This document shows positions 11,066 through 47,025 of a stretch of DNA of 64,000 bases, piece after piece. The stretch spans positions 24,094 through 88,093 of the forward strand of contig CAZJHY010000001.1 in the NCBI GenBank assembly GCA_964545975.1, written 5' to 3'. A model generated the notes under the pieces. It saw only the letters and a program-made list of their open reading frames with translations, searched no databases and had not been told where the DNA came from. A program made the translations under genes and the position numbers. The first letter of the stretch is position 1, and each line of letters opens with the position of its first letter. Source of the DNA: an uncultured Clostridia bacterium. Its GTDB lineage: Bacteria > Bacillota > DTU025 > MWDF01.

Positions 11066-11713
11066 CTACTTGTTCTGCCCGTAAGTCCTGCCGAGGGTGG
11101 AGACCAATGCCTTCACCTGTTCGTCAGTTAGTGAGGATGCCCTGCCTATTTGCGAGGCGTGTATATAGCACGAGCACATCTTCTCCAGAAGCTCGCACCT
11201 TTCAAGGGCCTTCTCAGGCGTGTCAGCGACGCAGACTGACCCGTGATTGGACATTATTGCTGCATTCTTGCTTCCTAGCGCCTTCGCGACGTTCTTTGCT
11301 AGGTCGTCGCTTCCAGACATAGCATAATCCGCTACCTCTACAGCGCCTCCGAAGCTGAAAGCGCATATATCAGTTATGACCGGAAGAGGCATCCTTGCTA
11401 CGCCAAGGGCTATCGCCATGGGTGAATGAACATGAACGACGGCTTTAACCTCAGGCCTGGCAATGTAGATCTCCCTGTGCAGCATGCTTTCTACCGAGGG
11501 CTTAAGCTTTGATGAGGAATACAGTGTCGCCAGATCCAGCTCTACTATCTGCTCAGGGGAAAGCGCCTCATAAGGTATGCCGCTGGGGGTTATCAGCATC
11601 CCGGTTCCTGATTCATTCCTGCAGCTGACATTCCCTCCGGTGCCTATAGTAAGCCCCATTTCCATCATCTTGATGCCGGTCTGGATAATTCTTCTGTTAA
11701 GCTGCTCGTTCAT
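11066..11713 (-). CDS. Class II aldolase/adducin-domain protein (FucA/AraD-like)
   Basis: Motifs GTGGNVSCR and VVHVHSP. It is transcribed divergently from the sugar operon. Confidence 0.85.
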   Translation of the reverse strand: MNEQLNRRIIQTGIKMMEMGLTIGTGGNVSCRNESGTGMLITPSGIPYEALSPEQIVELDLATLYSSSKLKPSVESMLHREIYIARPEVKAVVHVHSPMAIALGVARMPLPVITDICAFSFGGAVEVADYAMSGSDDLAKNVAKALGSKNAAIMSNHGSVCVADTPEKALERCELLEKMCSCYIHASQIGRASSLTDEQVKALVSTLGRTYGQNK

Positions 11714-12151: not shown

Positions 12152-13162
12152 GTGAAGAGAACATTGTTAATCGCGGTTGTACTAGTCATGGCACTAACCA
12201 TCGTAACCGGCACTTTCGCAGCGACTACGCCTCTGTTGGTATCGGGCGGCGGTCTTAAGACGACCACTACCGTCAAGGCCAACTCGAAGTATCTCATCGC
12301 TTGCATCGTTAAGAACTCCACCAATCCTTACATGATCAAGCAGCTTGACGGCTTCAAAGCCGCCGGCGCATTCATGGGCTTCGACGCCGTCGCACTGGCT
12401 CCCGCCAAGGCCGACAACATCGAAGAGCAGGTCAAGATAATCGAAGACCTCATCCAGAAGGGCGTCAAGGGCCTCGTCATCCATCCTTCCGACTCCAACG
12501 GCATAGTCCCGATAGTCGAGAAGGCCATGTCGCTCGGCATCCCCGTGGTCGTAATAGGTACCCCGGCGAATACCGACAAGATATTCTTCCGCACCGGCAT
12601 GGACTATACCGACTCTGGCCGCAAGATCACCGAAGCTGCCATCCAGAAGATGGGCGGCAAGGGCAACGTCATAATACTTGAGGGCCCGCCCCAGGCGATC
12701 AACGCCAAGGAAAGGCTCAACGGCATGCTCGAAACTATAGCCAAGTACCCCGGCGTAAAGGTGCTTGACTCCCAGACCGCAAACTTCAACAGGCTCAACG
12801 CCCTCCAGGTCATGGAGAACCTCCTTCAGAAGCACAAGGACGTGCAGGGAGTCTTCGCGGCCAACGACGAGATGGCCCTCGGCGCGATCCAGGCTCTTGA
12901 AGCCGCCGGCAGGAAGAACGTGGTAGTCTCCGGCGTCGACGGAAGCAAGGACGCCTCGCAGGCGGTCCTCGAAGGCAGGCTCACAGTGACCTCGAATGCA
13001 GACCCCTATTCCAGCTCCTGGTGCGCCGCAGCATACATCGTGAAGTACTTGAACGACGGCACCATGCCGCCCTCCAAGTTCATCCCGTATCCCGCTGAAG
13101 TCGCCATCATCGACAAGAGCAACGTTCAGAACTACATCAACAACGACGCGTGGTGGAAGTAG
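12152..13162 (+). CDS. Sugar ABC transporter substrate-binding protein (RbsB-like, Peripla_BP_4)
   Basis: Signal peptide, GTG start after GGGGAGGG, and RbsB-like core sequences (VKNSTNPYM, AANDEMALGA, VSGVDGS). Confidence 0.88.
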   Translation: MKRTLLIAVVLVMALTIVTGTFAATTPLLVSGGGLKTTTTVKANSKYLIACIVKNSTNPYMIKQLDGFKAAGAFMGFDAVALAPAKADNIEEQVKIIEDLIQKGVKGLVIHPSDSNGIVPIVEKAMSLGIPVVVIGTPANTDKIFFRTGMDYTDSGRKITEAAIQKMGGKGNVIILEGPPQAINAKERLNGMLETIAKYPGVKVLDSQTANFNRLNALQVMENLLQKHKDVQGVFAANDEMALGAIQALEAAGRKNVVVSGVDGSKDASQAVLEGRLTVTSNADPYSSSWCAAAYIVKYLNDGTMPPSKFIPYPAEVAIIDKSNVQNYINNDAWWK

Positions 13163-13180: not shown

Positions 13181-13210
13181 ATGGAGCCCTGTCGCAAGAC
13201 GGGGCTCCAT
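13181..13210 (+). promoter_or_regulatory. Intercistronic stem-loop after the substrate-binding protein gene
   Basis: ATGGAGCCC (13181-13189) pairs with GGGCTCCAT (13202-13210), a 9-bp stem. The ATG at 13181 is part of the stem, so it is unlikely to be the ATPase start. Confidence 0.55.
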
Positions 13211-13231
13211 GCACCCAAGGGGGCGTTATTT

Positions 13232-14752
13232 TTGGAGATAGTACCTATCCTCGAAGCGAGGAACATCAGCAAGGAGTTCCCGGGCGTAAAGGCGTTGGAT
13301 GAAGTATCCATACAGGTAAGGCCCGGCGAGGTCCATGTACTGATAGGAGAGAACGGGGCCGGAAAGAGCACGCTGTCCAAGATACTCATGGGAGTGTATA
13401 CCAGCGACAAGGGCGAGATCCTGTTCGATGGTAAGCCCGCCCACATTAGGAACCCTCATGACGCAAGGGCATTAGGCATATGCGGTGTCCATCAGGAGTT
13501 CATGCTTGTACCCTGGATGAACGTCGCACAGAACATCTTCATCAACAGAGAGCCCAGGATTTGGCCGGGGCTTCCCTTCATAGACCACAAGAAGATGCAC
13601 GAGGACAGCAGGAAGCTGCTTTCCTCCTTCAACGTGAACATCAACACCAAGCAGCCGGTGAAATACCTGGACACCGCGCTCCAGCAGATGGTGGAGATAG
13701 TAAAGGCGCTATCTACGAACCCCAAGGTCCTGATACTTGACGAACCGACTGCAGTCCTCACGGACAGGGAGGTCAACAGCCTCTTCGCCCATATAGAGGA
13801 GCTGAGAAGCCGAGGGGTTGCGATCATATACATATCGCACAGGCTTCCTGAGATCAGAAGGATAGGCGACAGGGTCACGGTCCTAAGAGACGGGAAGTAT
13901 GTAGCAACGGTTGACATCAAGGACACCCCCGACGAGGAGCTCATCAAGATGATGGTGGGCAGGAGCGTTTCGCAGCTTTATACCAGAAACCGCCAGGTTC
14001 CCGGGAAAGAGGCCCTGAGGCTTGAGAATTTCAGCGTGAAGGGCGGACCGCAGAATGTCGACCTGGTGCTGCACTACGGAGAGATCATTGGGCTTGCGGG
14101 CCTGATTGGTTCAGGGCGCACCGAGCTTGTCAGGGGCATCATGGGAATTGACCAGCAGACAGGCGGTTCCCTTTACATCGATGGCAACAAAGTCACGGTC
14201 GGAAGCCCTGACAAGGCGATAGGACTGGGGCTGGGGCTTCTGCCTGAGGACCGCAAGAGGTATGGCCTCGCCCTTAAGACGAACATCGCCTGGAATACCA
14301 TAATGGCGAGCCTCAAGCGGGAGTTCCCCAAGGGAGTAGTAAGGGAGCGCAAGGTGCGCGACATCGCCCAGGGCTATGTTAAGCAGCTGAAAATCGCCAC
14401 AGACTCGGTATCTAAGGTGGTGGGCTTCCTAAGCGGAGGCAACCAGCAGAAGGTTGTCGTCGCCAAGTGGATCAACACCAAGGCCAAGATCCTCATCTTC
14501 GACGAACCTACAAGGGGCATCGACGTGGGGGCCAAGGCAGAGGTGCACGCCCTCATGGACAAACTGGTGGCCGAAGGAAACGCGATCATAATGATTTCCT
14601 CCGACCTGCCGGAAGTCCTCGGGATGAGCGACCGCGTCTACACGATATTCCAGTGCCGTTCCATGGGGGACTGCTGCTTCCAGGAGGCGAACCAGCAGAG
14701 AATCGGCTCCCTTATGCTGGGAGTGGGGGTGAAGACAGATGCAAACCAGTAA
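13232..14752 (+). CDS. Sugar ABC transporter ATP-binding protein, duplicated ATPase (RbsA-like)
   Basis: Two nucleotide-binding domains are present (GENGAGKST; LSGGNQQKV; ILIFDEPTRGID). The preferred start is TTG 13232, 9 nt after AAGGGGG. The ORF itself opens at 13181. Confidence 0.88.
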   Translation: MEIVPILEARNISKEFPGVKALDEVSIQVRPGEVHVLIGENGAGKSTLSKILMGVYTSDKGEILFDGKPAHIRNPHDARALGICGVHQEFMLVPWMNVAQNIFINREPRIWPGLPFIDHKKMHEDSRKLLSSFNVNINTKQPVKYLDTALQQMVEIVKALSTNPKVLILDEPTAVLTDREVNSLFAHIEELRSRGVAIIYISHRLPEIRRIGDRVTVLRDGKYVATVDIKDTPDEELIKMMVGRSVSQLYTRNRQVPGKEALRLENFSVKGGPQNVDLVLHYGEIIGLAGLIGSGRTELVRGIMGIDQQTGGSLYIDGNKVTVGSPDKAIGLGLGLLPEDRKRYGLALKTNIAWNTIMASLKREFPKGVVRERKVRDIAQGYVKQLKIATDSVSKVVGFLSGGNQQKVVVAKWINTKAKILIFDEPTRGIDVGAKAEVHALMDKLVAEGNAIIMISSDLPEVLGMSDRVYTIFQCRSMGDCCFQEANQQRIGSLMLGVGVKTDANQ

Positions 14753-15704
14753 GCTCATGGGCTTTTTGAGGAAGGTCCCGCCGGCGACATACATCATACT
14801 GCTCATGATAGCCATATACGGCATCGCCGCGCCCGGCTTCTTCACCCTTGGAAACCTCGAGAACGTCGGAAACCAGGCGGCCCCCCTTCTCATCGTCGCC
14901 ATAGGTGTGACCATGGTCATCATGACGGAGGGTACAGACCTTTCGATCGGTTATGTGATGGGCATGGTCGGAGTCGTTGTATCGATTATGCTTAGGGCGA
15001 AAATCTGGATAGGCTGGGCGTTCCTTGCCGGCATCGCGGTAGGGGTGTTCTGCGGCTTCATAAACGGCGTCGCAGTCGCAAAGCTCAAGCTTCCTCCGTT
15101 CATTGCTACGCTTGGTACCGGAAACGTCATATTCGGAATAGGCCTCGTCATAACCGAAGGATACTCCATACAGGCACTTGATCCTGCGCTGCTTTTTCTG
15201 GCAAGCGGCAAGGTGTTCGGAATAAGCATGCCGATACTGATTGCCACGGTGGTCTTCGGGTTATGCTGGGTACTCATGAACTACACGCCGTTCGGGCGCA
15301 ACATAGTCTCTCTCGGAGGCAACTCCGAGGCGCTTAGAGGCGTTGGCCTTAACGTCGGGAAAGCCTCCATATCGGTATACATGATGTGTGGCTTCCTTGC
15401 GGCAATAGGAGGCCTCATAGTGGCGTCAAGGACAGGCTCAGGCTATTCGGCGGCTGCCATGGGATGGGAGTTCGACGCCATCGGAGCCAGTATAATCGGC
15501 GGTACATCCTTCGAGGAGGGCAATGGATCCATAAGCAGGACCGTAATTGGTGTCGCGCTCATATCGATACTCAGAAACGGCCTTAATGTCGTGGGCGTGC
15601 CGAACATGTACCAGTACGCGCTCATCGGCGCCATAGTGCTGACGGCCATAATCCTGGACGTTCGCTTCAGGCAGGCCGCGAAGGGAGGCGTCAAGAGAGT
15701 ATGA
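14739..15704 (+). CDS. Sugar ABC transporter permease (RbsC-like)
   Basis: Polytopic protein with the RbsC-type motif TGGIDLS/GTDLSIG. Confidence 0.9.
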   Translation: MQTSKLMGFLRKVPPATYIILLMIAIYGIAAPGFFTLGNLENVGNQAAPLLIVAIGVTMVIMTEGTDLSIGYVMGMVGVVVSIMLRAKIWIGWAFLAGIAVGVFCGFINGVAVAKLKLPPFIATLGTGNVIFGIGLVITEGYSIQALDPALLFLASGKVFGISMPILIATVVFGLCWVLMNYTPFGRNIVSLGGNSEALRGVGLNVGKASISVYMMCGFLAAIGGLIVASRTGSGYSAAAMGWEFDAIGASIIGGTSFEEGNGSISRTVIGVALISILRNGLNVVGVPNMYQYALIGAIVLTAIILDVRFRQAAKGGVKRV

Positions 15705-16696
15705 ACGAAGGTTCAAGGATGAAGGACACCCCCAAGGCGGTCGCAATCGTAAACGACAGGCTCAAGGCAAGGGAGGCCATAGCTCCCCTCTTCAGGCTCA
15801 CGTTCCTGATAGTCCTCATGATCGCACTTTCCATACTCAGCGAGGACTTCTTCACATGGAGCAACCTAATTAACGTTCTCAGGCAGTCGACTTTCCTGAT
15901 AGTAATCGGCCTCGGGCTCACAGGGGTGCTGCTTACCGGAGGCATCGACCTGTCCGTAGGCGGTGTGCTCGCATTCGTGGGCTGCGCGACTGGACAGATG
16001 ATGAGATCCGGCGTTCCGCTTTATCTTGCAGTGCCAATCGGTCTTCTAATCGGAGCGGGAGTCGGATGCTTCAACGGTTTCATGGTGGGGTACATCAAGC
16101 TTCCTCCGTTTGTGGCCACTTACGGTTCCAAGTGGATATCCGAGGGCATGGCGCTGCTTCTTATGCAGGGGCAGGTCATCTACGGCTTCCCGAGGGTGTA
16201 CCGCTGGATCGGCATCGGCTACATAGGACCCATACCAGTGCCCATCATAATTGCTGCCATCCTTGCGGTAATAATGAACTTCCTGTTCGTGAAGACCGTA
16301 TTCGGCAGGCAGGTATATGCACTGGGCGCCAACAAGGAAGCAGCATTCTACTCGGGCATCAAAGTCAAGAAGAACATCATGGTGGTATACACCCTTGCTG
16401 GCCTCATGGCGGGCATTGCCGGCCTTCTGATGCTTGCAAGGCTTGACGCCGCCGAGGTGAACATGGGAGAGGCCCTGCAGCTGCAGTCCCTCGCCGCGGT
16501 CATCATCGGGGGTGCATCCCTTCGCGGAGGCGAGGGCAGCATATTCGGCACGATAATTGGCGCCATAACCCTTACGCTGGTCGTAAACGGGCTTAACCTG
16601 CTTGGCGTGCGCTCTTTGTGGCACTCAGTGGTGCTCGGCGGCGTCATCCTGGCATCCGTGATAATGGACCTGCGCATGAAGAAGCTGGCGCAATAA
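15701..16696 (+). CDS. Sugar ABC transporter permease (RbsC-like, second copy)
   Basis: Polytopic protein with LTGGIDLSVGG. Its start forms an ATGA overlap with the upstream permease gene. Confidence 0.9.
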   Translation: MNEGSRMKDTPKAVAIVNDRLKAREAIAPLFRLTFLIVLMIALSILSEDFFTWSNLINVLRQSTFLIVIGLGLTGVLLTGGIDLSVGGVLAFVGCATGQMMRSGVPLYLAVPIGLLIGAGVGCFNGFMVGYIKLPPFVATYGSKWISEGMALLLMQGQVIYGFPRVYRWIGIGYIGPIPVPIIIAAILAVIMNFLFVKTVFGRQVYALGANKEAAFYSGIKVKKNIMVVYTLAGLMAGIAGLLMLARLDAAEVNMGEALQLQSLAAVIIGGASLRGGEGSIFGTIIGAITLTLVVNGLNLLGVRSLWHSVVLGGVILASVIMDLRMKKLAQ

Positions 16697-16727: not shown

Positions 16728-17537
16728 ATGGCCAACCTTACGATCAGACCCATAAACACCGGTTACGCGGAAACCTACAAGAAGCAGTACCAGTACCATC
16801 ATTCTACCCACAAGTACCACAACGTCGACGACGGAAAGCTTCTTCTGCCCTGCATGGCATTCCTTATCGAGGGCGGAGACAAGCTCGTGCTGGTAGACAC
16901 CGGCATGTCCAACACCGAGATAGCCAACAAGTATCATCATCCGGGTTCGTACCAGCCTGACGGCTTTGCGATACATGAGCAGCTGGCGAAGCTGGGCATC
17001 AAGTGCGAGGACATCGACATTGTCATCTTCACGCACATGCACTGGGACCACATGCACAACATGGAGAAGTTCGTAAACGCCAGGTTCATCGCCCACAAGA
17101 AGGAATGGGAGTTCTGCCAGAACCCCATCCCGCTGTACTACAAATCATACGAGCATCCCAAGCTCGGCATAAAGGCTCCCTTCACTGGCCTTAAGATCGA
17201 GACCGTAGAGGGCGAGCAGGAGATAGTCCCCGGCATAAGGGTGTTCGAGAGCTTCGGGCATTCGCCGGGCCACATGTCCGTGGAAGTCGACTGCGAGGAC
17301 GGATCCTACATCCTCTGCGGCGATGCGGTATTCATCTACGACAACCTTAAGCCCGTGCCGGACATGTTCTATGAGATTACTCCCCCGGCCAGGTATGCCA
17401 ACATCGTCGAGTGCTGGAACAGCATAGTCGAGATGAAGCATAGGGCCAAGGAGCAGCGCTTCATACTGCCCTCCCATGAGCCTGAGATAGAGGAGCTCGC
17501 GAAGAAGTACGGAACTTTCCCGATACCCAAGAAGTAA
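16728..17537 (+). CDS. Metallo-beta-lactamase-fold hydrolase, lactonase-like (AiiA/UlaG-type fold)
   Basis: The HxHxDH motif appears as THMHWDHMHN. GHSPGH, CGD and SHEP follow, in the order expected for the zinc ligands. Confidence 0.8.
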   Translation: MANLTIRPINTGYAETYKKQYQYHHSTHKYHNVDDGKLLLPCMAFLIEGGDKLVLVDTGMSNTEIANKYHHPGSYQPDGFAIHEQLAKLGIKCEDIDIVIFTHMHWDHMHNMEKFVNARFIAHKKEWEFCQNPIPLYYKSYEHPKLGIKAPFTGLKIETVEGEQEIVPGIRVFESFGHSPGHMSVEVDCEDGSYILCGDAVFIYDNLKPVPDMFYEITPPARYANIVECWNSIVEMKHRAKEQRFILPSHEPEIEELAKKYGTFPIPKK

Positions 17538-17619: not shown

Positions 17620-18843
17620 ATGAAGACTATCGCAGTGATAACCTCGCTGGACACGAAGGGGAAAGAGACCCTCTATATAAAGGATGCGATCGAGAGGTTC
17701 GGCTCGAAGGCTCTCATCATAGACGTAGGGGTCAAGGAGCCGCCATATTTCACGCCTGATATCGCAAGGCACGAGGTGGCCGCCGCCGCCGGCATCGACT
17801 GGGATACGGTGAAGGACAAGGAGAAAAGGGTGAGGATAAGCACCATGACCTCAGGCCTTGAGGTGCTTATACCCAAGCTATATGCCGAGGGGAAGCTTTC
17901 GGCCGTGTTCTCGATGGGAGGCCTTCAGAACACAACGATGGGAACATCGGCGATGAAGACCCTGCCGCTCGGGGTGCCTAAGCTCATGCTTTCCACGATG
18001 GCGTCCAGCAACAGGCCTTTCGGTCCGTTCGTGGGAACCAAGGACATGACCCTCATGCACTCGGTGGGCGACATCCTAGGGGTAAACCCCGTCACCAAGG
18101 CCGTGATGGATAACGCCGTCGGAGCCATCGTGGGGATGGCGGAGCACGCCGGAAACAGGGTGCAGAAAACTGACAGGATCCTTGTGGGTGCCACTATGCT
18201 CGGCGTAACGAACGACGGAGTGAGCCGCGCGGTATCCTACCTCGAGGAGGCAGGCTACGACGTGGTCACCTTCCATGCGAACGGTGCGGGAGGACCGGCC
18301 ATGGAGGAGCTCATAGGACAGGACACGATAGACGCCGCGATGGATCTTACGCTGCATGAGATAGACGCTGAATTCTTCGGGGGGCACTGTTCGGGGGCGA
18401 CCAACAGGCTCCTTATGGCCGCCGAGAAGGGGATACCCCAGGTTGTTTCGCTTGGTGCCTCCGACGTCATAGACTATGAGGTCGTGGACCTCGACAAGGT
18501 AAGGGAGTATGGAAGGCGCAAGTTCGTCTATCAGCACCCCACCATCCAGCACATAAAGCTCATAGAGGAAGAGGCGCACAAGGTCGGGACGGTAATCGGG
18601 GAGAGGCTCTCAAAGGCCAAGGGTCCCCTAACCCTCGTCATACCTAGGGGAGGCTTCCACCAGAGCAGCTACAAAGGCGGTCCCATATGGGATCCTGCCA
18701 TCGACGAGATAATCATAGGACACATACTAAGCAGGATTGCGCCTTCCACAAGGGTGGTAGAGACCGCAGCCCATATCAACGAGCCCGCCTTCAGCAGGGT
18801 GGCGGCCGATGAGATGATTAAGCTTCTGAAGGCCATGCGCTAA
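17620..18843 (+). CDS. UPF0261 / Tm-1-like ATP-binding domain protein
   Basis: The N-terminus MKTIAVITSLDTKGKE matches my memory of the UPF0261 family. The length is about 400 aa. This call rests on recollection, not a search. Confidence 0.7.
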   Translation: MKTIAVITSLDTKGKETLYIKDAIERFGSKALIIDVGVKEPPYFTPDIARHEVAAAAGIDWDTVKDKEKRVRISTMTSGLEVLIPKLYAEGKLSAVFSMGGLQNTTMGTSAMKTLPLGVPKLMLSTMASSNRPFGPFVGTKDMTLMHSVGDILGVNPVTKAVMDNAVGAIVGMAEHAGNRVQKTDRILVGATMLGVTNDGVSRAVSYLEEAGYDVVTFHANGAGGPAMEELIGQDTIDAAMDLTLHEIDAEFFGGHCSGATNRLLMAAEKGIPQVVSLGASDVIDYEVVDLDKVREYGRRKFVYQHPTIQHIKLIEEEAHKVGTVIGERLSKAKGPLTLVIPRGGFHQSSYKGGPIWDPAIDEIIIGHILSRIAPSTRVVETAAHINEPAFSRVAADEMIKLLKAMR

Positions 18844-18875
18844 GCAGGGCCAGAAGCCTCACAAGGAGGATTCCG

Positions 18876-20132
18876 ATGTTCTACGGACTGCCTTTCGACA
18901 ACCCCGAGTCCATTTATGGCAGGGATTACGTTCTGGGCACCTATTTCGTGACCGGCGTCACAGGAGACGATGCGCTTAATAAGCTGGGCATGTTTGCAGT
19001 CGGCCAGTCCACCGGCACGTGGATGCCGGTGCCCGGCATAACCAGGCAGATGGTGGAGGATCATCAGGGAAGAGTCGTCGGATGCTATCCGGTGCCCGCC
19101 CAGGAGCCCGGCGCCTACGTTCTTAGGGTGGCGTTTCCCTACAGCAACATAGGCGGGTCCATCTCGATGCTGCTTACCACGCTTGCGGGAAACGACGCTT
19201 CGACTGCGCTGTGCGCGAAGCTCATAGACGTGGAGCTTGTCGGCAAGGCGAAGTCGGCCTTCCACGGTCCGCACTTCGGAATAGACGGGGTGAGGAAGCT
19301 CACGGGAGTCTACGACAGGCCCATAGTCATGAATATGATCAAGCCTTGCACGGGCTTTCCGGCTACGGCAGGGGCGGAGTTCTTCTACGCGTCCGGATCA
19401 GGCGGCGTAGACATAATAAAAGATGACGAGCTTATGGGCAACACCAGCTTCAATTCCGTCGCCGACAGGGTGAGGGAGTATGGTAAGGCTCAAGCGAGAA
19501 TCGGAGGAGAGAGGGGCAAGGCCCCTATATACCTTCCCAATGTGACCGACAGGCACGATAAAATGCGCGACAACATCAAGGCGGCGATAGACGGCGGAGC
19601 GAAGGGCGTCATGGTCAACTTCGTCTTCACCGGACTCGACAGCCTTGCCGCGCTTACATCGGAGTTCGGCGACAAGGTGATGTTCCTCGCTCATGCGGCA
19701 GGAGTTGGCGTCATGACCGGTTATCCGCAGGGCTTAAGCACCTCGCTTCTTCTAGGAAGGCTCGGAAGGCTGGCAGGCGCGGACGCGGTGGTCACCCTTT
19801 ATCCTCTCGGCATGGGAGGAGACGGCTTCCAGGAGCTTCAGATGACGGTGCAGAAGCACAGGCTGCCTCTGGGAGATGTCAAGCAAGCCTTGACCGTGGT
19901 CGGAGGAGGCGTCACGCCGCTTACCGTACCGTTTGCGGTGAAGAGCTTCGGCAAGGACATAATCATCGCCGTTGGCGGTGGCATCCAGGGCCACCCGGAC
20001 GGGGCGACGGCAGGCGCAAAGGCCATGATGGCTGCGGTGGATGCGACCATGAAGGGCGTAAGCCTGGAAGACGCGGTTAAGGACAGCCCGGAGCTCGGAA
20101 GGGCGATAACCAGATGGGGCAAGAAGGCTTAA
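18876..20132 (+). CDS. RuBisCO-like protein (form IV RLP)
   Basis: Three blocks align without gaps, by eye, to RbcL: RPIVMNMIKPCTG...GGVDIIKDDE, TVVGGGV and AVGGGIQGHPDG. The protein is only 418 aa. No small subunit, phosphoribulokinase or cbb genes are nearby. Confidence 0.85.
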   Translation: MFYGLPFDNPESIYGRDYVLGTYFVTGVTGDDALNKLGMFAVGQSTGTWMPVPGITRQMVEDHQGRVVGCYPVPAQEPGAYVLRVAFPYSNIGGSISMLLTTLAGNDASTALCAKLIDVELVGKAKSAFHGPHFGIDGVRKLTGVYDRPIVMNMIKPCTGFPATAGAEFFYASGSGGVDIIKDDELMGNTSFNSVADRVREYGKAQARIGGERGKAPIYLPNVTDRHDKMRDNIKAAIDGGAKGVMVNFVFTGLDSLAALTSEFGDKVMFLAHAAGVGVMTGYPQGLSTSLLLGRLGRLAGADAVVTLYPLGMGGDGFQELQMTVQKHRLPLGDVKQALTVVGGGVTPLTVPFAVKSFGKDIIIAVGGGIQGHPDGATAGAKAMMAAVDATMKGVSLEDAVKDSPELGRAITRWGKKA

Positions 20133-20154: not shown

Positions 20155-20793
20155 ATGGAGGTAAAGCAGATGGAAGATCTTATCATGAGCATAAAAAGGG
20201 ACGTGGAGCTCGCCTGCAGGAGGGCGTACACGAGGGGAATACAGACCGGAAGCGGCGGAAACGTCAGCGCAAGGATACCGGGCACGGACCATATGATAGT
20301 GAAGCCAAGCAAGGTGTCGCTCATCGAATGCGACCCCGAGACGCTTATCATAACCGACTTCGACGGAAACTTGGTGCAGGGCTCTCTTCCTCCTACGAGG
20401 GAGGCGGTGCTTCACGGCTGGCTGTATAAGAAGTTCGGCAAGATCGGAGCGGTGGTTCACACCCATTCGCCCTGGGCTATATCCTGGTCCTTCACCAGGA
20501 GGGACCTTCCCAATATTACCATGCATACTCAGCTTAAGCTGGGATGCCCCATCCCGGTCAGGTTCTTCTCCAGCCCCAAGGGGGTTCTGAAGGAGGAGAT
20601 GCCAGAAGTCTACGGCCTTTTCGAGAAGGAACCGAACCTCGCCGCCTTCATACTCGGTGCGCACGGTGTGGTCGCAGTCGGCGACAATATCATAGAGGCC
20701 GAGCACACGGCGGAGCTCATAGAGGAGACGGCACAGATAGCATACCTGCACGAGATGGGATTGAAGCTCGGGATGTTCCCCGAGGGCAGATAA
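20155..20793 (+). CDS. Class II aldolase/adducin-domain protein
   Basis: Motifs GSGGNVSAR and VVHTHSP. Confidence 0.85.
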   Translation: MEVKQMEDLIMSIKRDVELACRRAYTRGIQTGSGGNVSARIPGTDHMIVKPSKVSLIECDPETLIITDFDGNLVQGSLPPTREAVLHGWLYKKFGKIGAVVHTHSPWAISWSFTRRDLPNITMHTQLKLGCPIPVRFFSSPKGVLKEEMPEVYGLFEKEPNLAAFILGAHGVVAVGDNIIEAEHTAELIEETAQIAYLHEMGLKLGMFPEGR

Positions 20794-20822: not shown

Positions 20823-21284
20823 ATGTACAGGAAGATGGTAATAGGCTGCGACGAGGCGGCCTGTGAGCTGAAAAACGCCCTTATCGAGGTCCTTAAGAAG
20901 AAGGGAATTGAGTATGAGGACGTCGGAGTGCCGGATGCAAGCGACAAGACCTATTATCCCCTGGTGGCAGAGAAGGTGGCCGAGGCGATAATAGAAAGCG
21001 GCTATGAGAAGCACGGGATGCTCCTCTGCGGAACGGGCATCGGCATGGCCATATCCGCGAACAAGCACCCCGGGGTATTTGCCGCTGTATGCCACGACCA
21101 GTATTCTACCGAGAGGGCGAAGCTGAGCAACAACTGCAACGTCATCTGCATGGGGGCAAGGGTCATAGGGCCAGAGCTTGCCAAGAAGAACCTGGAGCAA
21201 TGGCTTGAGCTGACGTTCAAGGACGGCTCCTCGACCCCTAAGGTGGAGGCTGTGAAGGATATCGAGAAGAGGCATATGAAATGA
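20823..21284 (+). CDS. RpiB/LacA/LacB-family sugar-phosphate isomerase
   Basis: MVIGCDEAA, and LLCGTGIGMAISANK containing the catalytic Cys. The start is ATG 20823. The longer ORF from 20544 overlaps the aldolase gene and is rejected. Confidence 0.88.
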   Translation: MYRKMVIGCDEAACELKNALIEVLKKKGIEYEDVGVPDASDKTYYPLVAEKVAEAIIESGYEKHGMLLCGTGIGMAISANKHPGVFAAVCHDQYSTERAKLSNNCNVICMGARVIGPELAKKNLEQWLELTFKDGSSTPKVEAVKDIEKRHMK

Positions 21285-22075
21285 GGAGCCCGCTTCTTGT
21301 CGGCACGAACCTCAAGATGTACAAGGGCGTGAAGGAGACGCTGGAGTTCCTTTCGCGCCTTGCGGGAAACGTCAGCCACATAGGCAGCGAAGACATGACG
21401 CTCTTCGTCATACCCTCCTACCTTGCCCTTCATGCGGCATGCGGGTCTGATGCGCACAGCAGGATACTCCTTGGCGCGCAGAATCTGCACTGGGAGGACT
21501 CCGGGCAGTTCACCGGTGAGATATCCCCCATGATGCTCAAGGAGATAGGCATAGATATCGCTGAGATCGGCCACTCGGAACGAAGGCAGCTTTTCGGTGA
21601 GACGGACGTGACAGTGGGGCTTAAGGCCAAGGCAGCGCTCAGGCACGGCATGAGGGCCCTGGTATGCATAGGGGAGACCGCAGACGACAAGGCGTCGGGC
21701 ATTACCTATGAGAAGCTGAGGATGCAGGTGAAGGTGGCCTTAAAGGGGATTTCTGCGGATGAGCTCGAGGGGCTTTGGGTAGCATACGAGCCGGTATGGG
21801 CCATCGGGATCCACGGGGTCCCGGCTGAGCCCGGATACGCCGAGAAGAGCCACAGGATGATAAAAGACGTGCTGGAAGAGCTTTACCCTAATAAGGGCGC
21901 AGGCGTTCCCGTGCTGTACGGCGGAAGCGTCAACATGGAAAACGCCATGGAGCTCATCGTCCAGCCGAGCATAGACGGCTTGTTCATAGGAAGGACCGCT
22001 TGGGACGCGGACAGGTTCGCGTCGCTGATCAAGGATGTCCTCCCCTTGTGGAAGGCCAAGGCTGAGAGAGAATAG
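21281..22075 (+). CDS. Triosephosphate-isomerase-family protein (TpiA/EryH/LerI-like)
   Basis: Motifs NLKMY, GHSERR, AYEPVWAIG and YGGSVN. Its start forms an ATGA overlap with the RpiB-like gene. Confidence 0.88.
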   Translation: MRSPLLVGTNLKMYKGVKETLEFLSRLAGNVSHIGSEDMTLFVIPSYLALHAACGSDAHSRILLGAQNLHWEDSGQFTGEISPMMLKEIGIDIAEIGHSERRQLFGETDVTVGLKAKAALRHGMRALVCIGETADDKASGITYEKLRMQVKVALKGISADELEGLWVAYEPVWAIGIHGVPAEPGYAEKSHRMIKDVLEELYPNKGAGVPVLYGGSVNMENAMELIVQPSIDGLFIGRTAWDADRFASLIKDVLPLWKAKAERE

Positions 22076-22104: not shown

Positions 22105-22776
22105 ATGGCGGACATGGTCATGGAGGCGAAAAGGCAGTTAATAGAGATCGGAAGGCAGATAGCTGCCAAGGGACTTGTGATAGGACCCGGCGGAAATACC
22201 AGCTTAAGGGCAGGCGCCCTCATGGTGATATCCGCCAGCGGCTCTTCATTCGAGTGCTCCGACGAGAGCGACTACGTCGCGATAGACATAGAGACAGGAA
22301 AACAGGCCGACGGCGGCAAGAGGCCGTCTTCCGAAGTGCTGATGCACCTTGAGTGCTACAGGAGGCGCCCGGATGTAAACGCTGTAGTCCATACCCATCC
22401 GACGTGGTCGACATCTGTAGCAAGCTCGGGCACCAAGATGCCCCCGATGTTCCCGGATTACGTCGTGTTCGTGGGCAAGCCCGCGACCCTGGATTACGTG
22501 ATACCGACGACGAAGCTTCTGGCCGATGCCGTGGCCGAAGTCATAGGGGAGCATAATGTGGTGCTCATGAGCAATCACGGGGTGCTTGCCGTCGCAGGCG
22601 ACCTCAAGATGGCGCTATTAAGGGTGGAGCTGGCAGAGGAGAACGCAAGGATGCTCGTGATAGCAAACTCCCTCGGCAAGCCGCGATCCCTTACGGATGC
22701 CGAAGTCCAGGCGATATTTGACCTGGAGAGCGAGAAGTACAGGCAGAGGCTTCTGAAAAACGAGGGCGGGAAGTAG
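22105..22776 (+). CDS. Class II aldolase/adducin-domain protein
   Basis: Motifs GPGGNTSLR and VVHTHP. Confidence 0.85.
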   Translation: MADMVMEAKRQLIEIGRQIAAKGLVIGPGGNTSLRAGALMVISASGSSFECSDESDYVAIDIETGKQADGGKRPSSEVLMHLECYRRRPDVNAVVHTHPTWSTSVASSGTKMPPMFPDYVVFVGKPATLDYVIPTTKLLADAVAEVIGEHNVVLMSNHGVLAVAGDLKMALLRVELAEENARMLVIANSLGKPRSLTDAEVQAIFDLESEKYRQRLLKNEGGK

Positions 22777-22798
22777 TCCTAAAAAGGAGGACGCACCA

Positions 22799-24271
22799 TT
22801 GTCCGACAGGCTTTTCATGGGGATAGACGTGGGCACGGGCGGAGCCAGGGTCATAGTCTGCGACGAGTACGGGTTGCCCCTGGCGGAAAGCTCGAGGCCG
22901 TTTGCCGCAGGTGCCGGCGCATCTGACATGCCCCAGGGCTGGCATCAGCAGTCGCCCGCAGCCTGGTGGGACGCGACTTCCGCATGTATAAGGCAGGTCA
23001 TGGGCTCACCCGGACTCGGCGGAAATCCTGGCAGGGTGTTCTCTGTTTCCGTCACATCCACATCAGGTACTGTGATCCCGCTTAGGGAGGATTGCGAACC
23101 GCTCTGGGATGCGGTCATGTACAACGACAGCAGGTCGTCCGCGCAGGCGGAAAGGGCGAACGAGGCGCTTAAGGAATTATGCGGGAAGCTCGCCTACAGG
23201 TTCGACACATCCTTCGGGCTTCCGAAGATGCTATGGTTCATGGACAGCAAGCCTGAGCTGTTCAGAAGGACCAGATTCTTCGTCCACGCTGGCGATTATA
23301 TTATCGGGAAGCTCTGCGGCTGCTTCGGTTTCACCGACTATTCCAACTCGCTGAAGTCTGGATACGACATCGATGAGCTGATATGGCCGAAGGAGATAGA
23401 GGAGAAACTGGGCGTCCCGGCGTCCAAACTGCCGGAAGTGCTCGCCCCGGGCACGGTAGTCGGGAAGGTCTGCGCCGCCTGCTCCGCAGAGACGGGCCTT
23501 CCGGAAAGCACCAACGTCGCGCTGGGCATGACGGACGGCTGCGCCTCGCAGATTGCATCGGGTGCCGCGTCCTTAGGCGACTGGAACACCACGATCGGCA
23601 CAACGCTTGTAATCAAGGGGGTCACCGAGAGGCTCCTCTTCGACCCGAAGGGAAGGATATACAGCCACAGGCATCCCGACGGGCACTGGATGCCAGGCGG
23701 GGCCAGCAACGTCGGCGGCGACTGCATAAGAAGCAACTTCCGCGACGATGAGCTGGATACGCTGAACGCGTCCGTGCGCCCTGAGAAGCCGACAGGCATG
23801 CTGGTGTACCCTCTGGAGAAGAAGGGCGAGAGGTTCCCGAACAGAGATCCTTTGGCAGAGGGGTTCATAATGGGAAGCCCATCAGGAAGGCCCGAGCTCT
23901 ATCAGGCCTACCTTGAGGGTGTTGCGCTGGTGGAGAAGATGTCATACGAGATGCTTCAGAGCTTGGGGGCGGCAATCGGTGACACGATCTTTGCGGCGGG
24001 AGGCGCCACGAAAAGCGAGCCATGGCTCAAGGTAAGGTCGAATATGCTCGACCGGCGCATTGCAGTCCCGGAGATTGCAGGAGGATTCATGGGAGCCGCC
24101 ATACTAGCAGCTTCCCTCTCCCATTGGGGCTCGCTCGGTGAGGCTGCCAAAAACATGGTAAAAATTTCCAAGACGATATGCCCGGACCCTGCCGCTGTCG
24201 ATGCCTATAAGGATAAGTACGGGCAGTTCATAAGAGAGATGGGAAGCAGGGGATATACCCTGGAGGGATGA
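22799..24271 (+). CDS. FGGY-family carbohydrate kinase
   Basis: N-terminal MGIDVGTGGARV and C-terminal FAAGGATKS, typical of xylulokinase/ribulokinase-type kinases. TTG start after AAGGAGG. Confidence 0.85.
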   Translation: MSDRLFMGIDVGTGGARVIVCDEYGLPLAESSRPFAAGAGASDMPQGWHQQSPAAWWDATSACIRQVMGSPGLGGNPGRVFSVSVTSTSGTVIPLREDCEPLWDAVMYNDSRSSAQAERANEALKELCGKLAYRFDTSFGLPKMLWFMDSKPELFRRTRFFVHAGDYIIGKLCGCFGFTDYSNSLKSGYDIDELIWPKEIEEKLGVPASKLPEVLAPGTVVGKVCAACSAETGLPESTNVALGMTDGCASQIASGAASLGDWNTTIGTTLVIKGVTERLLFDPKGRIYSHRHPDGHWMPGGASNVGGDCIRSNFRDDELDTLNASVRPEKPTGMLVYPLEKKGERFPNRDPLAEGFIMGSPSGRPELYQAYLEGVALVEKMSYEMLQSLGAAIGDTIFAAGGATKSEPWLKVRSNMLDRRIAVPEIAGGFMGAAILAASLSHWGSLGEAAKNMVKISKTICPDPAAVDAYKDKYGQFIREMGSRGYTLEG

Positions 24272-24275
24272 TGAT

Positions 24276-25673
24276 ATGAGCATTTACAAGGCCTGCGACA
24301 TAAGGGGAGTCTACCCTTCGTCGCTCGACGAGAAGACGTCATACGATATAGGAGCGGCTTTGGGGGAGATGCTCGGCCCTGTAAGCATGCTCGTCGCAGG
24401 CGACGTGAGGGTCAGCACGCCGCCTTTGAAGCAAAGCCTTATAAACGGCCTTGTGGACGCCGGATGCGAAGTAGTGGACATCGGCATGGCCCCGACCCCG
24501 GCCTTCTACTACGCGCTTCATAAGCTGGGCACCGAGTCGGGCGTGACGGTGACGGCATCCCATAATCCGGCCAAGTACAACGGCTTCAAGATAGCGCCGC
24601 ACGGGCAGCCCATGACTGAAGACGTGATGGACGACCTGAGGAAGATGGTCGAAGCTGGAGGATTCAAGCCATATGGGCAAGGGAGCGTAAGGAAGGCTGA
24701 GGTCATCGAGGATTACAAGAGATTCGTGCTTGATAAGATAGGAGAGCTAACGGGAACGAAGTGCAGCGCTCATGGTTCGAGTAATGCCCTCAAAGCCGTG
24801 GTGGACTGCGGCAACGGCTGCTACAGCACGATAGCCCCTGAAGTTCTAAGGCAAGCTGGCATCGCGGTTGAGGAGCTCTATTGCTGGGAGGATGGAACTT
24901 TCCCTAACAGGGAGCCAAACCCAGCTGTAGCTGAGAATCTCGAGGCTTTATGCGGCAAGGTCAGAGATACGGGGGCAGACCTTGGCATTGCCTTCGACGG
25001 GGACGGTGACAGGGTGGTCTTCGTGGACGAGCTGGGCAAAGTGGTCCCTAGCGACAATGCGATAGCACTTTTCGCCGGCTTCCTCCTTAAGAATCACCCC
25101 GGCTCGAAGGTGGTTTTCGACATCAAGTGCTCAAGCCTTGTGTCGGATTCGATCAAGGCGGCGGGCGGCATTCCAGTGATGGAGAAGTCAGGCCACGCTT
25201 ACATCAAGAACAACCTGCTGAGAAACGGCGCGGTTTTCGCAGGCGAGATCAGCGGGCACTTCTTCTTCCAGGTGCTCAAGGGGGATGACGGGCTGTTCGC
25301 GGCTCTTCTGATGGCCGAGATCATGATGTCGGAGGGCAGAAGCCTGGGGAAGATGGTGGAGTCGCAGCCGAAGTACTTCACTACAAGAGACTTCAGGATA
25401 CCGTTCTCGGGGAGCACGGCCGAGCTGTTCGGAAGGCTCAAAGCGCGCCTTGAGGCAAGCGGAGGCGCAAACCTGTCGTACCTGGACGGCATAAGGGCGG
25501 AGTTTTCTGAAGGCTGGGGGCTTATAAGGGCATCAGTCACTGAGCCACTGGTTACGCTGAGGTTCGAGGGGAAGTCGTTGGAGAGCCTTGATAGGATAAG
25601 GGATAGCTTCCTTGCTGCAGATGAGGACTTGCTTGATGCCGTAAGGGAGGTTTGGGCAAACCATCTTCCTTAG
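24276..25673 (+). CDS. Phosphomannomutase/phosphoglucomutase-family phosphosugar mutase
   Basis: Active-site loop TASHNPAKYNGFK, metal loop FDGDGDR and GEISGH. Confidence 0.9.
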   Translation: MSIYKACDIRGVYPSSLDEKTSYDIGAALGEMLGPVSMLVAGDVRVSTPPLKQSLINGLVDAGCEVVDIGMAPTPAFYYALHKLGTESGVTVTASHNPAKYNGFKIAPHGQPMTEDVMDDLRKMVEAGGFKPYGQGSVRKAEVIEDYKRFVLDKIGELTGTKCSAHGSSNALKAVVDCGNGCYSTIAPEVLRQAGIAVEELYCWEDGTFPNREPNPAVAENLEALCGKVRDTGADLGIAFDGDGDRVVFVDELGKVVPSDNAIALFAGFLLKNHPGSKVVFDIKCSSLVSDSIKAAGGIPVMEKSGHAYIKNNLLRNGAVFAGEISGHFFFQVLKGDDGLFAALLMAEIMMSEGRSLGKMVESQPKYFTTRDFRIPFSGSTAELFGRLKARLEASGGANLSYLDGIRAEFSEGWGLIRASVTEPLVTLRFEGKSLESLDRIRDSFLAADEDLLDAVREVWANHLP

Positions 25674-41451: not shown

Positions 41452-41462
41452 GAAGGGTGCAG

Positions 41463-42677
41463 ATGTATAAGACTGCCTGGAGAATTGCGCCTAGGGAGTA
41501 TCCCGGGGTGCCCAATATTAGAGAGGCCGTCAAAGAAGCTCTAAGGAAGCCTTTGGGGATTGGCCTTGCTGAACTGGTCAAGCCTGGCAACAAAGTAGCG
41601 ATTGCCGTGGATGATCTTACCAGGCCTACACCACAGGCGGAGCTTCTACCCGTCATCCTAGATGAGCTGGCAATGCTGGGCATCGACGAAAAGGACATAA
41701 CAATTATCATCGGGCTCGGTGCGCACAGGCGCATGAGCAAGGCAGAGATCGAGACCCGTTTCGGGGCTGCAGCGCAGAGGGTAGGCGCAATAATCAACCA
41801 CGATGTGGAAGACTGTATAGCGATAGGAAGGACCTCAACGGGTGGCGATATTGCCGTTAATAGGATTTTCTGTGAGGCTGATGCCAAAATTGCGGTTGGT
41901 TGCATTCTGCCCCACATATATGCGGGGTGGAGCGGCGGCGCAAAAATGATTCAACCTGGAATATCCAGCGTGAAGACCACAACGCACGTACACAGAATTG
42001 CCAATTTGCACCTTTACGAGATACTCGGCAATACCGAGAACCTCGTGAGAATTGAAATGGAACAGATAGCAGCACTTGCTGGTCTGAAATTCATTATCAA
42101 TGTCGTGCTCAATGACAAAAACGAAGTTATCGCCGTCGTCGCTGGGGACACAGTGGAGGCTCACAGGAAGGGCGTCGGCAAAGCCGAGAAGGTTTACGGT
42201 TGGAACGGCTTGAAACCCGTGGACGTAGCGGTAGCGTACGCACCTGGTGTAGCAACAGACCTCTGGCAAAGCGCAAAGAGCCTTACGGTCGGTGCGATGG
42301 CAATCAAGCAGGGTGGAACTGTGGTGCTAGTCGCAGCCTGCCCCGAGGGGATTGCGCCTGGGCACCCGATAATAAAGGAATTGGGAACAGCCTCTTTCGA
42401 AGAGGTGCTGTACAAGGTAGATAATGGGCTCTTGGAAGATACGGTAGGGGCGTTGGTCCATATGACCATAGCCAAATGCCGGGAAAAAGGCAGGGTGATA
42501 CTAGTGTCATCCGGCATATCAAAACAAGAGGCAACCTGTCTGGGAATGGAGTCAGCAGCCGATGTGGAAGAGGCATTGAGAATGGCCGTCAGCCGTTACA
42601 ATGTTGCGCCTGAGGTCGGCTTCATAGAGTGCGCTGGCGAGTTGTCTATTTCAATTAAGGAGGAATACTGCAAATGA
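41463..42677 (+). CDS. LarA-like nickel-pincer-cofactor-dependent 2-hydroxyacid racemase/epimerase homolog (DUF2088)
   Basis: Motifs VDDLTRPTP, GLGAHRRM and LPHIYAGWSGGAK. These carry His and Lys at the positions recalled for the LarA catalytic His residues and the cofactor-tethering Lys. Start is ATG 41463 or GTG 41457. Confidence 0.8.
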   Translation: MYKTAWRIAPREYPGVPNIREAVKEALRKPLGIGLAELVKPGNKVAIAVDDLTRPTPQAELLPVILDELAMLGIDEKDITIIIGLGAHRRMSKAEIETRFGAAAQRVGAIINHDVEDCIAIGRTSTGGDIAVNRIFCEADAKIAVGCILPHIYAGWSGGAKMIQPGISSVKTTTHVHRIANLHLYEILGNTENLVRIEMEQIAALAGLKFIINVVLNDKNEVIAVVAGDTVEAHRKGVGKAEKVYGWNGLKPVDVAVAYAPGVATDLWQSAKSLTVGAMAIKQGGTVVLVAACPEGIAPGHPIIKELGTASFEEVLYKVDNGLLEDTVGALVHMTIAKCREKGRVILVSSGISKQEATCLGMESAADVEEALRMAVSRYNVAPEVGFIECAGELSISIKEEYCK

Positions 42678-43924: not shown

Positions 43925-43959
43925 GGGTCCAGCTAAAAAAGAAAGGAGTCTAAAAAAGA

Positions 43960-45099: not shown

Positions 45100-45113
45100 T
45101 CTAGTAACAGTCG

Positions 45114-45137
45114 CCCGGCGCGGGTAACCGCGCCGGG
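45114..45137 (+). promoter_or_regulatory. Intercistronic perfect 10-bp GC hairpin with a GTAA tetraloop after the substrate-binding protein gene
   Basis: CCCGGCGCGG-GTAA-CCGCGCCGGG, located between the stop at 45099 and the permease ribosome-binding site AAGGAGG (45154-45160). Confidence 0.6.
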
Positions 45138-45169
45138 TAACCTTGCTTATCGTAAGGAGGCTTAAGCCC

Positions 45170-46057: not shown

Positions 46058-46067
46058 GAGGGGTCAC

Positions 46068-47021: not shown

Positions 47022-47025
47022 GACT

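Follow-up and report, generated by a model that had tools for sequence, protein, structure and literature searches.

A widespread operon pairing a clade of RuBisCO-like proteins with a UPF0261 subfamily points to tetrulose-phosphate chemistry

Most clades of RuBisCO-like proteins (RLPs) have no assigned reaction. In the apiose route a lactonase, a DUF1537 kinase and the RLP decarboxylase OiaX lead to L-erythrulose 1-phosphate, OiaX and OiaC both being RLPs. The ascorbate system of E. coli comprises the UlaABC phosphotransferase system (PTS), the UlaG lactonase of the metallo-beta-lactamase (MBL) fold and the class II aldolase-family epimerase UlaF. In Brucella and Mycobacterium smegmatis, isomerases of the LerI/EryH and DerI/EryI types turn erythrulose 1-phosphate into erythrose 4-phosphate, EryC supplying the correct stereoisomer (PMC11508834, PMC10733421). 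The class II aldolases FucA and RhaD give D-erythrulose 1-phosphate and need EryC before LerI (PMC10733421). The very large UPF0261 family has one characterised member, MarK (Saro_1862) of Novosphingobium aromaticivorans, found in 2025 to phosphorylate acetovanillone with conversion of ATP to ADP, the first activity described in the family (PMC12624787). Here we analyse a stretch of 64,000 nucleotides from an uncultured Clostridia bacterium (contig CAZJHY010000001.1, positions 24,094 to 88,093; hereafter the window), in which a UPF0261 gene lies directly upstream of an RLP gene. Comparison with related loci reveals a widespread operon, not described before, in which a dedicated UPF0261 subfamily accompanies one RLP clade and whose gene content points toward tetrulose-phosphate chemistry. 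No paper connecting UPF0261 with RLPs was found in the literature searched.

Gene identities were assigned by Pfam and NCBIfam profile scans of the open reading frames (ORFs) of the window, and cutoffs quoted below are those of the NCBIfam models. The segment 12152-25673 of the plus strand is a run of closely spaced genes (Table 1). On that one strand the operon reads, in order, ATP-binding cassette (ABC) sugar transporter, MBL-fold lactonase-like enzyme, UPF0261 protein, RLP, class II aldolase-family enzyme, RpiB and an isomerase resembling triosephosphate isomerase (TIM). Between the stop codon of the UPF0261 gene and the start of the RLP gene lie 32 nt (18844-18875), which include an AAGGAGG ribosome-binding site. 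A preliminary description of this DNA had reported the adjacency, and its coordinates and gene identities proved correct; its view of UPF0261 as a family of unknown function is outdated, MarK having been recognised as an ATP-to-ADP kinase since 2025 (PMC12624787).

The co-occurrence survey suggested in that description was carried out on the best 80 of 305 matching loci, drawn from contigs representing one genome per species. Loci were picked by similarity to the window RLP, one of the two search patterns including its KPC motif; neighbours were labelled by tblastn with the window proteins, and 28 members of the RLP clade were aligned. A UPF0261 gene was found within 300 nt of the RLP gene in 42 of the 80 species genomes and within 10 kb in 56. 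The 42 loci share the gene order, with gaps of 12-230 nt, and UPF0261 lies directly upstream in 25 of the 28 loci having at least 50% RLP identity and sufficient upstream DNA. The carriers are spread over Bacillota, Acidobacteriota, Spirochaetota and Chloroflexota. The adjacency is thus conserved across four phyla and is far above chance, and the cluster of lactonase-like, UPF0261, RLP, RpiB, TIM-like and aldolase-family genes recurs across the same phyla. Within 3 kb of the RLP gene, 34/80 loci have a lactonase-like homologue, which in most cases immediately precedes UPF0261, and 46/80 have a member of the class II aldolase family. Clustering of the ORFs of these loci returned RLP, UPF0261, TIM-like, class II aldolase, RpiB, ABC, MBL and GntR/FCD families as recurrent, with URO-D and FGGY families rarer, and no further conserved unknown gene in the cluster.

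Phosphorylating systems were counted in the 70 RLP-clade loci with at least 3 kb of upstream DNA. UPF0261 was the only such system in 49, an FGGY-family kinase in 11 and a UlaA/GatC-type PTS (EIIC PF03611 with EIIB and EIIA) in 6; three loci held both UPF0261 and FGGY, and the single locus with no phosphorylating system is one without downstream DNA. The systems are nearly mutually exclusive (Fisher p = 2e-12, a value that overstates independence as the loci are related). The exceptions, 3 of the 52 UPF0261-bearing loci, include L007 and L009, the two full-length loci most closely related to the window; their FGGY kinase, like that of the window, is part of the aldolase/FGGY/mutase block. The preliminary description had recognised that an FGGY kinase acting as sole supplier of the RLP substrate would refute its proposal. 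We rejected that kinase as a conserved supplier in this subclade, since it is confined to the three-gene block of the closest relatives.

At all mapped active-site positions, the RLP residues are identical across the UPF0261, FGGY and PTS groups, so that a common or very similar RLP reaction is likely in all three. The proposed role of UPF0261, that of a kinase acting before the RLP, agrees with this nearly exclusive distribution and is well supported by comparative evidence. Consistent with the earlier reading of the window, no DUF1537 kinase was found among the 30 window ORFs scanned against Pfam, which included all those of 378-431 aa (some short ORFs were unscanned). The earlier interpretation survives in part: a kinase role fits both the complementary distribution and the conserved lysine, Gly195 and His219 described next, but the accompanying idea that the RLP stands in for a PEP-hydrolase-like partner does not.

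The UPF0261 protein of the window carries PF06792 (residues 2-176, E 4.3e-54) and PF23189 (residues 187-402, E 2e-61) and scores 397 bits with the NCBIfam subfamily model NF002674, above its cutoff of 335. Its top solved relative is MarK (PDB 9MPY, E 1.3e-43). K13 aligns with K16 of MarK and K20 of Tm-1, the lysine that contacts the ATP alpha-phosphate (PMC12624787), and G195 and H219 match the acceptor-oxygen ligands of MarK, Gly195 N and His219; all three residues are invariant in 35 subfamily sequences. The aromatic pocket of MarK is changed (T196 to V196, F283 to V283, I285 to D285, H304 to Q305, H348 to S349), and the neighbours are carbohydrate genes; neither a MarK-type aromatic pocket nor an acetovanillone-pathway context was found. 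The catalytic apparatus is kept, and the pocket has shifted toward a polar substrate.

To place this subfamily, a second sample was taken, comprising 80 UPF0261 loci from metagenomes whose proteins are 35-49% identical to that of the window. A PF09370 (PEP-hydrolase-like) neighbour was present in 39/80, bearing out the adjacency given as background in the preliminary description, an RLP in 2/80, and a pair of MBL and aldolase-family genes in 5/80, one of which also had an RLP. In a neighbour-joining tree of 145 sequences, computed without support values, the clade containing the window protein has 52-53 members, each with a link to an RLP or to the MBL and aldolase-family genes and none with one to PF09370; MarK lies outside this clade. 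The MBL/UPF0261/aldolase triad is also found with no RLP in the locus. Its neighbours in L088 are a LerI-like gene, a GntR/FCD regulator and a permease of the KdgT type, and in L090 a ketopantoate-reductase-family gene and a permease of the lactate type. These RLP-free triads resemble the pairs of DUF1537 kinase and class II aldolase-family decarboxylase of four-carbon acid-sugar routes (PMC12994016), a parallel that is the strongest argument for an acid or a lactone as substrate.

URO-D-family genes also recur beside UPF0261 (L061 1468-8715; L066 3474-9986; L111 9090-13839; L086 11278-12300), sometimes as repeated pairs and also beside an RLP. UPF0261 thus pairs with three enzyme families: PEP-hydrolase-like, URO-D-like and RLP. 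The notion that the RLP replaces the PEP-hydrolase-like TIM-barrel partner had to be abandoned, as both occur together in two loci and the window UPF0261 subfamily also occurs without an RLP. The two loci are those of Petroclostridium sp. X23 (L060 8554-15893) and Clostridium magnum DSM 2767 (L071 9971-17135), where RpiB, TIM-like and RLP genes adjoin a PF09370 gene, a UPF0261 gene of 29% identity, an Amidohydro_2 hydrolase, a second MBL gene and a membrane protein of the DUF1097 family. Both organisms are cultured, and their loci may provide a handle on the function of the UPF0261/PF09370 pair. Other cultured carriers of the RLP are Paenibacillus pasadenensis, whose variant has a dehydrogenase with UPF0261 and the RLP, and Lactonifactor longoviformis DSM 17459, which has the FGGY variant.

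The RLP itself reached the cutoff of none of the curated equivalog models for RuBisCO or RLPs, and its nearest solved structures are of the YkrW/MtnW type (4NAS, 2OEK). It has the catalytic barrel and the K-D-D-E motif of form IV, with K182, D184 and E185 invariant, and the clade keeps the equivalents of RuBisCO N123, K175, K201, D203, E204 and H294. Both glycine loops of the P1 phosphate site (G343-G345 and G367-G368) are likewise invariant in the clade, as anticipated in the preliminary description. At the position of K177 the clade has an invariant cysteine (C158), at R295 an alanine or tyrosine and at H327 no histidine, and the loop-6 region is unconserved. C158, which belongs to the KPC motif, was also invariant in 28 aligned homologues not chosen by that motif; one may speculate that it serves as the second acid/base of an epimerase-type reaction. 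The retained residues are the set with which RuBisCO enolises a 1-phospho-2-keto-3-hydroxy compound, with no second phosphate site, so that a monophosphate substrate would be expected; by analogy with RuBisCO enzymology, it is probably a ketose or a keto acid.

Three other assignments were rejected. A bona fide RuBisCO would require the set K177, R295, H327 and K334, which is incomplete here, and the form III model gave 207 bits (cutoff 497). In the case of MtnW/YkrW (266 vs 409 and 220 vs 514 bits), N106, invariant in the clade, aligns with Lys98 of the Geobacillus MtnW-type enzyme, its catalytic base; asparagine at this position is the RuBisCO N123 state. OiaX was set aside on a score of 128 bits (cutoff 700) and the lack of a DUF1537 kinase among the ORFs scanned.

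The genes downstream of the RLP gave indications on the products. The TIM-like protein matches the L-erythrulose-1-phosphate isomerase 11ef (202 bits, 45% identity) above true TIMs (at most 179 bits, 43%), a modest margin, and has the extra residue that LerI carries after AYEPVWAIG; the LerI loop type is present in 41 of 45 cluster-linked TIM-like homologues. The RpiB gene gave 154 bits with the NCBIfam model of DerI, the D-erythrulose-4-phosphate isomerase (cutoff 240). A transketolase gene follows the cluster in L064 and L071, and phosphofructokinase (PFK)-family genes lie near it in L047, L064 and L071. From sequence comparison, these features point to tetrulose phosphates and erythrose 4-phosphate as products.

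Two FGGY-type loci, L050 and L055, were informative in this respect. Alongside the RLP, TIM-like and RpiB genes, they encode a regulator of the DeoR type, a multi-pass membrane protein, two FGGY kinases and a GlpD-like flavoprotein set; L055 additionally has Dak1/Dak2, a class II fructose-bisphosphate aldolase and a PFK-family gene. No EryC-like gene was found in either locus. Because they otherwise match the Brucella erythritol layout, no enzyme but the RLP is available for the EryC step, and it may be an enolising isomerase or epimerase doing EryC's job. An aldolase-family enzyme working next to an epimerase would fit the precedent of FucA and RhaD. Several contexts point to tetrulose phosphates, rather than an acid sugar, as substrate. 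Both loci also encode a conserved protein of ~295 aa (L050 8999-9892; L055 4824-5696), which was rejected as an EryC-like enzyme on account of its 6-8 hydrophobic segments and the lack of any Pfam match; it probably represents an undescribed transporter family for a polyol-like substrate.

We postulate that the pair belongs to a conserved catabolic operon in which the UPF0261 kinase feeds the RLP on a route to erythrose 4-phosphate, a reading toward which the balance leans slightly. The gene identities, the linkage, the complementary phosphorylating systems and the conserved residues are direct observations; the kinase activity of this protein, the sequence of reactions, the RLP reaction and the substrate are deduced from them. 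The ABC transporter would take up a sugar-derived compound, probably a lactone or the acid to which it opens, and the MBL-fold lactonase-like enzyme would open the lactone. UPF0261, as a MarK-like small-molecule kinase with a polar acceptor pocket, would then phosphorylate a hydroxyl using ATP. The RLP would bind the monophosphate through its P1 site and, by enolisation of the RuBisCO type, shift or invert the centre next to the carbonyl. The class II aldolase-family enzyme would remove CO2 or split or epimerise the chain, and the LerI-like TIM and RpiB would take the resulting tetrulose phosphate to erythrose 4-phosphate. In the most specific version, the RLP would do the work of EryC, interconverting D- and L-erythrulose 1-phosphate. 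A bolder proposal, that the RLP epimerises, or migrates the carbonyl of, a 1-phospho-2-ketotetrose with the cysteine perhaps as acid/base, that the UPF0261 subfamily is a carbohydrate kinase and that the whole forms an unrecognised route, spanning four phyla, by which an imported lactone or keto acid reaches erythrose 4-phosphate, is tentative and rather unlikely to hold in full.

Several observations weigh against the proposed kinase-RLP route. The sampled loci are mostly metagenome-assembled genomes, phylogenetically related and chosen by RLP similarity, so that the counts are not independent, and the placement of the UPF0261 clade rests on a neighbour-joining tree without support values. 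The PTS-type and most FGGY-type loci have no lactonase-like gene (in L051 one lies ~8 kb away); their substrates therefore differ from that of the window, and the kinase-swap argument needs the RLP step to be the same. Four loci (L015, L018, L023 and L024) have UPF0261 and RLP genes with no RpiB or TIM-like gene nearby. The core cluster contains no dehydrogenase; therefore either the imported compound already has a carbonyl or enediol, or the enzyme is encoded elsewhere. Finally, the RLP cluster of Paenibacillus pasadenensis contains two AP_endonuc_2 genes, members of EryC's fold family, and the idea of EryC replacement is weaker for that variant because of them.

The variants also differ in their other genes. 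In the four loci devoid of RpiB and TIM-like genes the set consists of aldolase-family, ABC, GntR, ferredoxin-like, aldehyde:ferredoxin oxidoreductase, UPF0261 and RLP genes, and in L015 and L023 a URO-D-family gene comes after the RLP. Chloroflexota loci have UPF0261/URO-D pairs ahead of the RLP, and Paenibacillus pasadenensis and some Christensenellaceae have an added GH38 glycosidase and a zinc dehydrogenase. There is more than one entry substrate among the variants. Ascorbate/dehydroascorbate, erythroascorbate, 3-oxo-isoapionate, 3-oxo-tetronate, autoinducer-2 (AI-2) and erythrulose were considered as substrates, and none fits every gene. The aldehyde:ferredoxin oxidoreductase gene lies directly upstream of the UPF0261-RLP pair (L015 6510-8730; L023/L086 6374-8597; L019 2-1978; L024 6522-8751) and is preceded by a small ferredoxin-like gene in L015, L023 and L024. 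A possible role for the oxidoreductase is oxidation of an aldehyde set free by the aldolase-family enzyme, such as formaldehyde derived from erythrulose 1-phosphate.

Other explanations of the cluster were weighed against the postulated route. The one that survives best, improbable as we judge it, makes the RLP a beta-keto-acid decarboxylase like OiaX, which would remove CO2 from a 3-oxo acid sugar, set free by the lactonase-like enzyme and phosphorylated by UPF0261, to give L-erythrulose 1-phosphate; the LerI-like and RpiB enzymes would carry this on to erythrose 4-phosphate, with the aldolase in a side role. Such an enzyme would account for the LerI-like and DerI-like genes directly after the RLP, and the gene set mirrors the lactonase, DUF1537 kinase and OiaX of the apiose route; the lactonase-like gene and, in related loci, GntR/FCD regulators and acid permeases also agree with it. 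Against this stand the low score with the OiaX model given above, the lack of an oxidoisomerase or dehydrogenase for making the 3-oxo acid, and the occurrence of RLPs with the same active site in polyol-type loci, where FGGY and GlpD-like dehydrogenase genes give no sign of a carboxylate substrate.

Slightly less probable again is a division of the cluster into two modules, the lactonase-like, UPF0261 and aldolase enzymes producing dihydroxyacetone phosphate from a lactone, after the pattern of the 3-oxo-tetronate kinase/decarboxylase route, while the RLP, RpiB and TIM-like enzymes act on a parallel intermediate that is not the product of UPF0261. Each triad does occur separately, the former in L088 and L090 and the latter in loci without UPF0261, and the aldolase-family gene matches the 3-oxo-tetronate-4-phosphate decarboxylase model with 85 bits. 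However, UPF0261 and the RLP are immediate neighbours in constant order in the 42 loci, RLP-clade loci almost always hold exactly one phosphorylating system, and L088 retains a LerI-like gene beside its triad. A third explanation, which we consider very unlikely, is that UPF0261 is no free-standing kinase here but an ATP-binding partner complexed with barrel enzymes that it drives or regulates, for instance by phosphorylating an enol intermediate. It draws on the pairing of UPF0261 with PF09370 in 39/80 sampled loci, with the RLP in the window and with URO-D-family genes in three loci (L061, L066 and L111), on the ~25 A between the ATP and acceptor sites of MarK, whose mechanism is unresolved, and on the acidic phenolic oxygen that is MarK's acceptor (PMC12624787). 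Against it, MarK is active alone as a homodimer (PMC12624787), members of the window UPF0261 subfamily are found at loci with no RLP, and in other loci FGGY kinases or a PTS take the place of UPF0261 beside this RLP clade. Moreover, the RLP is found together with both UPF0261 and a PEP-hydrolase-like gene and so does not replace that partner, and no UPF0261-RLP fusion was found among the matches listed.

Table 1. Genes of the plus-strand run around the UPF0261-RLP pair, in window coordinates
Feature	Coordinates	Strand	Basis
RbsB-like periplasmic sugar-binding protein of ABC transporter (Peripla_BP_4)	12152..13162	+	PF13407 E 4.6e-59
ABC ATP-binding protein, two ABC domains	13181..14752	+	PF00005 (two stretches); sugar-type ATPase NCBIfam models
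ABC permease 1	14739..15704	+	PF02653 E 2.4e-40
ABC permease 2	15701..16696	+	PF02653 E 3.1e-38
MBL-fold hydrolase, lactonase type	16728..17537	+	PF00753 E 3e-24
UPF0261/Tm-1-like ATP-binding protein, proposed pathway kinase, 407 aa	17620..18843	+	PF06792, PF23189
RLP, 418 aa, KPC motif, Asn at RuBisCO N123 position	18876..20132	+	PF00016 E 2.5e-39
Class II aldolase/adducin-family enzyme (aldolase, epimerase or decarboxylase)	20155..20793	+	PF00596 E 9.4e-37
RpiB-family isomerase	20823..21284	+	PF02502; passes NCBIfam RpiB subfamily model
TIM-family (LerI-like) isomerase	21281..22075	+	top solved match 11ef
Second class II aldolase-family gene, fuculose-phosphate-aldolase-like, accessory block	22105..22776	+	PF00596 E 1.7e-42
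FGGY-family sugar kinase, accessory block	22799..24271	+	PF00370, PF02782; XylB model 194 bits vs cutoff 380
Phosphohexomutase-family enzyme (PGM/PMM), accessory block	24276..25673	+	PF02878, PF02879, PF02880, PF00408; below NCBIfam cutoffs

The nearest solved structures of the periplasmic binding protein are ribose- and monosaccharide-binding proteins, and its position is kept in related loci. The top NCBIfam and PDB matches of the MBL-fold protein are 4-pyridoxolactonase and AiiA-type lactonases, all below cutoff, and the first aldolase-family protein gave weak matches to the L-ribulose-5-phosphate 4-epimerase and 3-oxo-tetronate-4-phosphate decarboxylase models. The ATG of the RpiB gene, at 20823, is preceded by a GGAG site. 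Two public contigs carry an identical UPF0261 protein in the same gene order. The limits of the operon were set by gene spacing alone, because promoter and terminator scans of the window gave counts at chance level only. No tRNA gene was found in the window, and tblastn detected no PF09370 homologue there. The block 22105-25673 resembles an add-on serving a second substrate: its aldolase has a close homologue at the same position only in L001, L007 and L009 (matches elsewhere being of 28-34% identity), and among related loci its phosphohexomutase is present only in L007 and L009.

Elsewhere in the window, a third class II aldolase-family gene (11066-11713, minus strand) is divergent from the operon, and L009 has a similar gene there; its top models are the L-ribulose-5-phosphate 4-epimerase subfamily and L-fuculose-phosphate aldolase, at ~141-143 bits, below cutoff. 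In the segment 26599-30506 a DHDPS-family gene (200.5 bits vs the DapA cutoff of 206) precedes genes for an NMT1_3 binding protein and a DctM-type membrane protein of 626 aa, an arrangement that suggests TRAP/TAXI-type uptake combined with an aldolase or dehydratase rather than lysine biosynthesis. Within 41457-49704 lies a homologue of LarA-like nickel-pincer racemases (malate racemase LarAH6 model 299 bits, cutoff 500), adjoining an HMGL-like gene and a Peripla_BP_6 binding-protein gene, with an acetate kinase gene further downstream (48517-49704). The segment 50024-53095 has a galactarate/altronate-dehydratase-like gene and, after it, two ORFs of 340 and 296 aa that had no NCBIfam match at E 1e-20.

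The cluster gives an RLP clade and a UPF0261 subfamily a testable role. If the proposed route is true, it would provide a second substrate class for UPF0261 and a new activity or reaction type for the RuBisCO superfamily, and would uncover a carbon route of soil, peat and gut anaerobes. As the natural counterpart of an engineered erythrulose-monophosphate module, it would also be of interest to metabolic engineers.

Compared with known systems, the window RLP is nearest by sequence, among characterised RLPs, to MtnW/YkrW, the 2,3-diketo-5-methylthiopentyl-1-phosphate (DK-MTP-1-P) enolase (2OEK, 2ZVI; E ~1e-55), with which it shares the equivalents of K175, K201, D203, E204 and H294 and the P1 site; in the window, however, no methionine-salvage genes lie nearby. 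The Ula system resembles the cluster in combining an MBL-fold lactonase, phosphorylation and a class II aldolase-family enzyme, and the PTS-type relatives use an EIIC of the same family, PF03611. It differs in that the window has RLP, LerI-like and RpiB genes instead of UlaD- and UlaE-type genes, and phosphorylation would be soluble, after ABC import. Systems built on the DUF1537 kinases OtnK and OiaK, with the class II aldolase-family decarboxylase OtnC or the RLPs OiaX/OiaC, follow the same logic: a lactone or acid sugar is phosphorylated with ATP, passes to a class II aldolase-family enzyme, an RLP or both, and ends as a central sugar phosphate (C4 routes, PMC12994016); their kinase family is unrelated, and the core cluster of the window has no dehydrogenase or oxidoisomerase.

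The kinase candidate shares with MarK the two-domain UPF0261 architecture, the ATP-site lysine and Gly195/His219, but belongs to a separate clade and differs at the aromatic-pocket residues, three of five being polar in the window protein (D285, Q305, S349); MarK acts in acetovanillone catabolism, whereas the window UPF0261 has a context of carbohydrate catabolism. Pairs of Tm-1-like or bacterial UPF0261 with PF09370 (PMC5028733) have in common with the window a UPF0261 module and an adjacent gene for a barrel-type enzyme; they differ in the partner, the window having no PF09370 by tblastn and its subfamily never being linked to one in the sampled tree. The tetritol pathways, EryA-EryB-EryC-EryH-EryI of Brucella and LerK/LerI/DerI of M. 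smegmatis, have the counterparts of the LerI/EryH-like TIM and DerI/EryI-like RpiB that adjoin the RLP here, and the kinase and GlpD-like dehydrogenase of Brucella are found again in the FGGY-type relatives (PMC11508834, PMC10733421). Unlike these pathways, which begin with a polyol kinase and a dehydrogenase, the operon of the window opens with ABC import, followed by a lactonase-like enzyme and UPF0261, and in place of an EryC-type gene it has the RLP.

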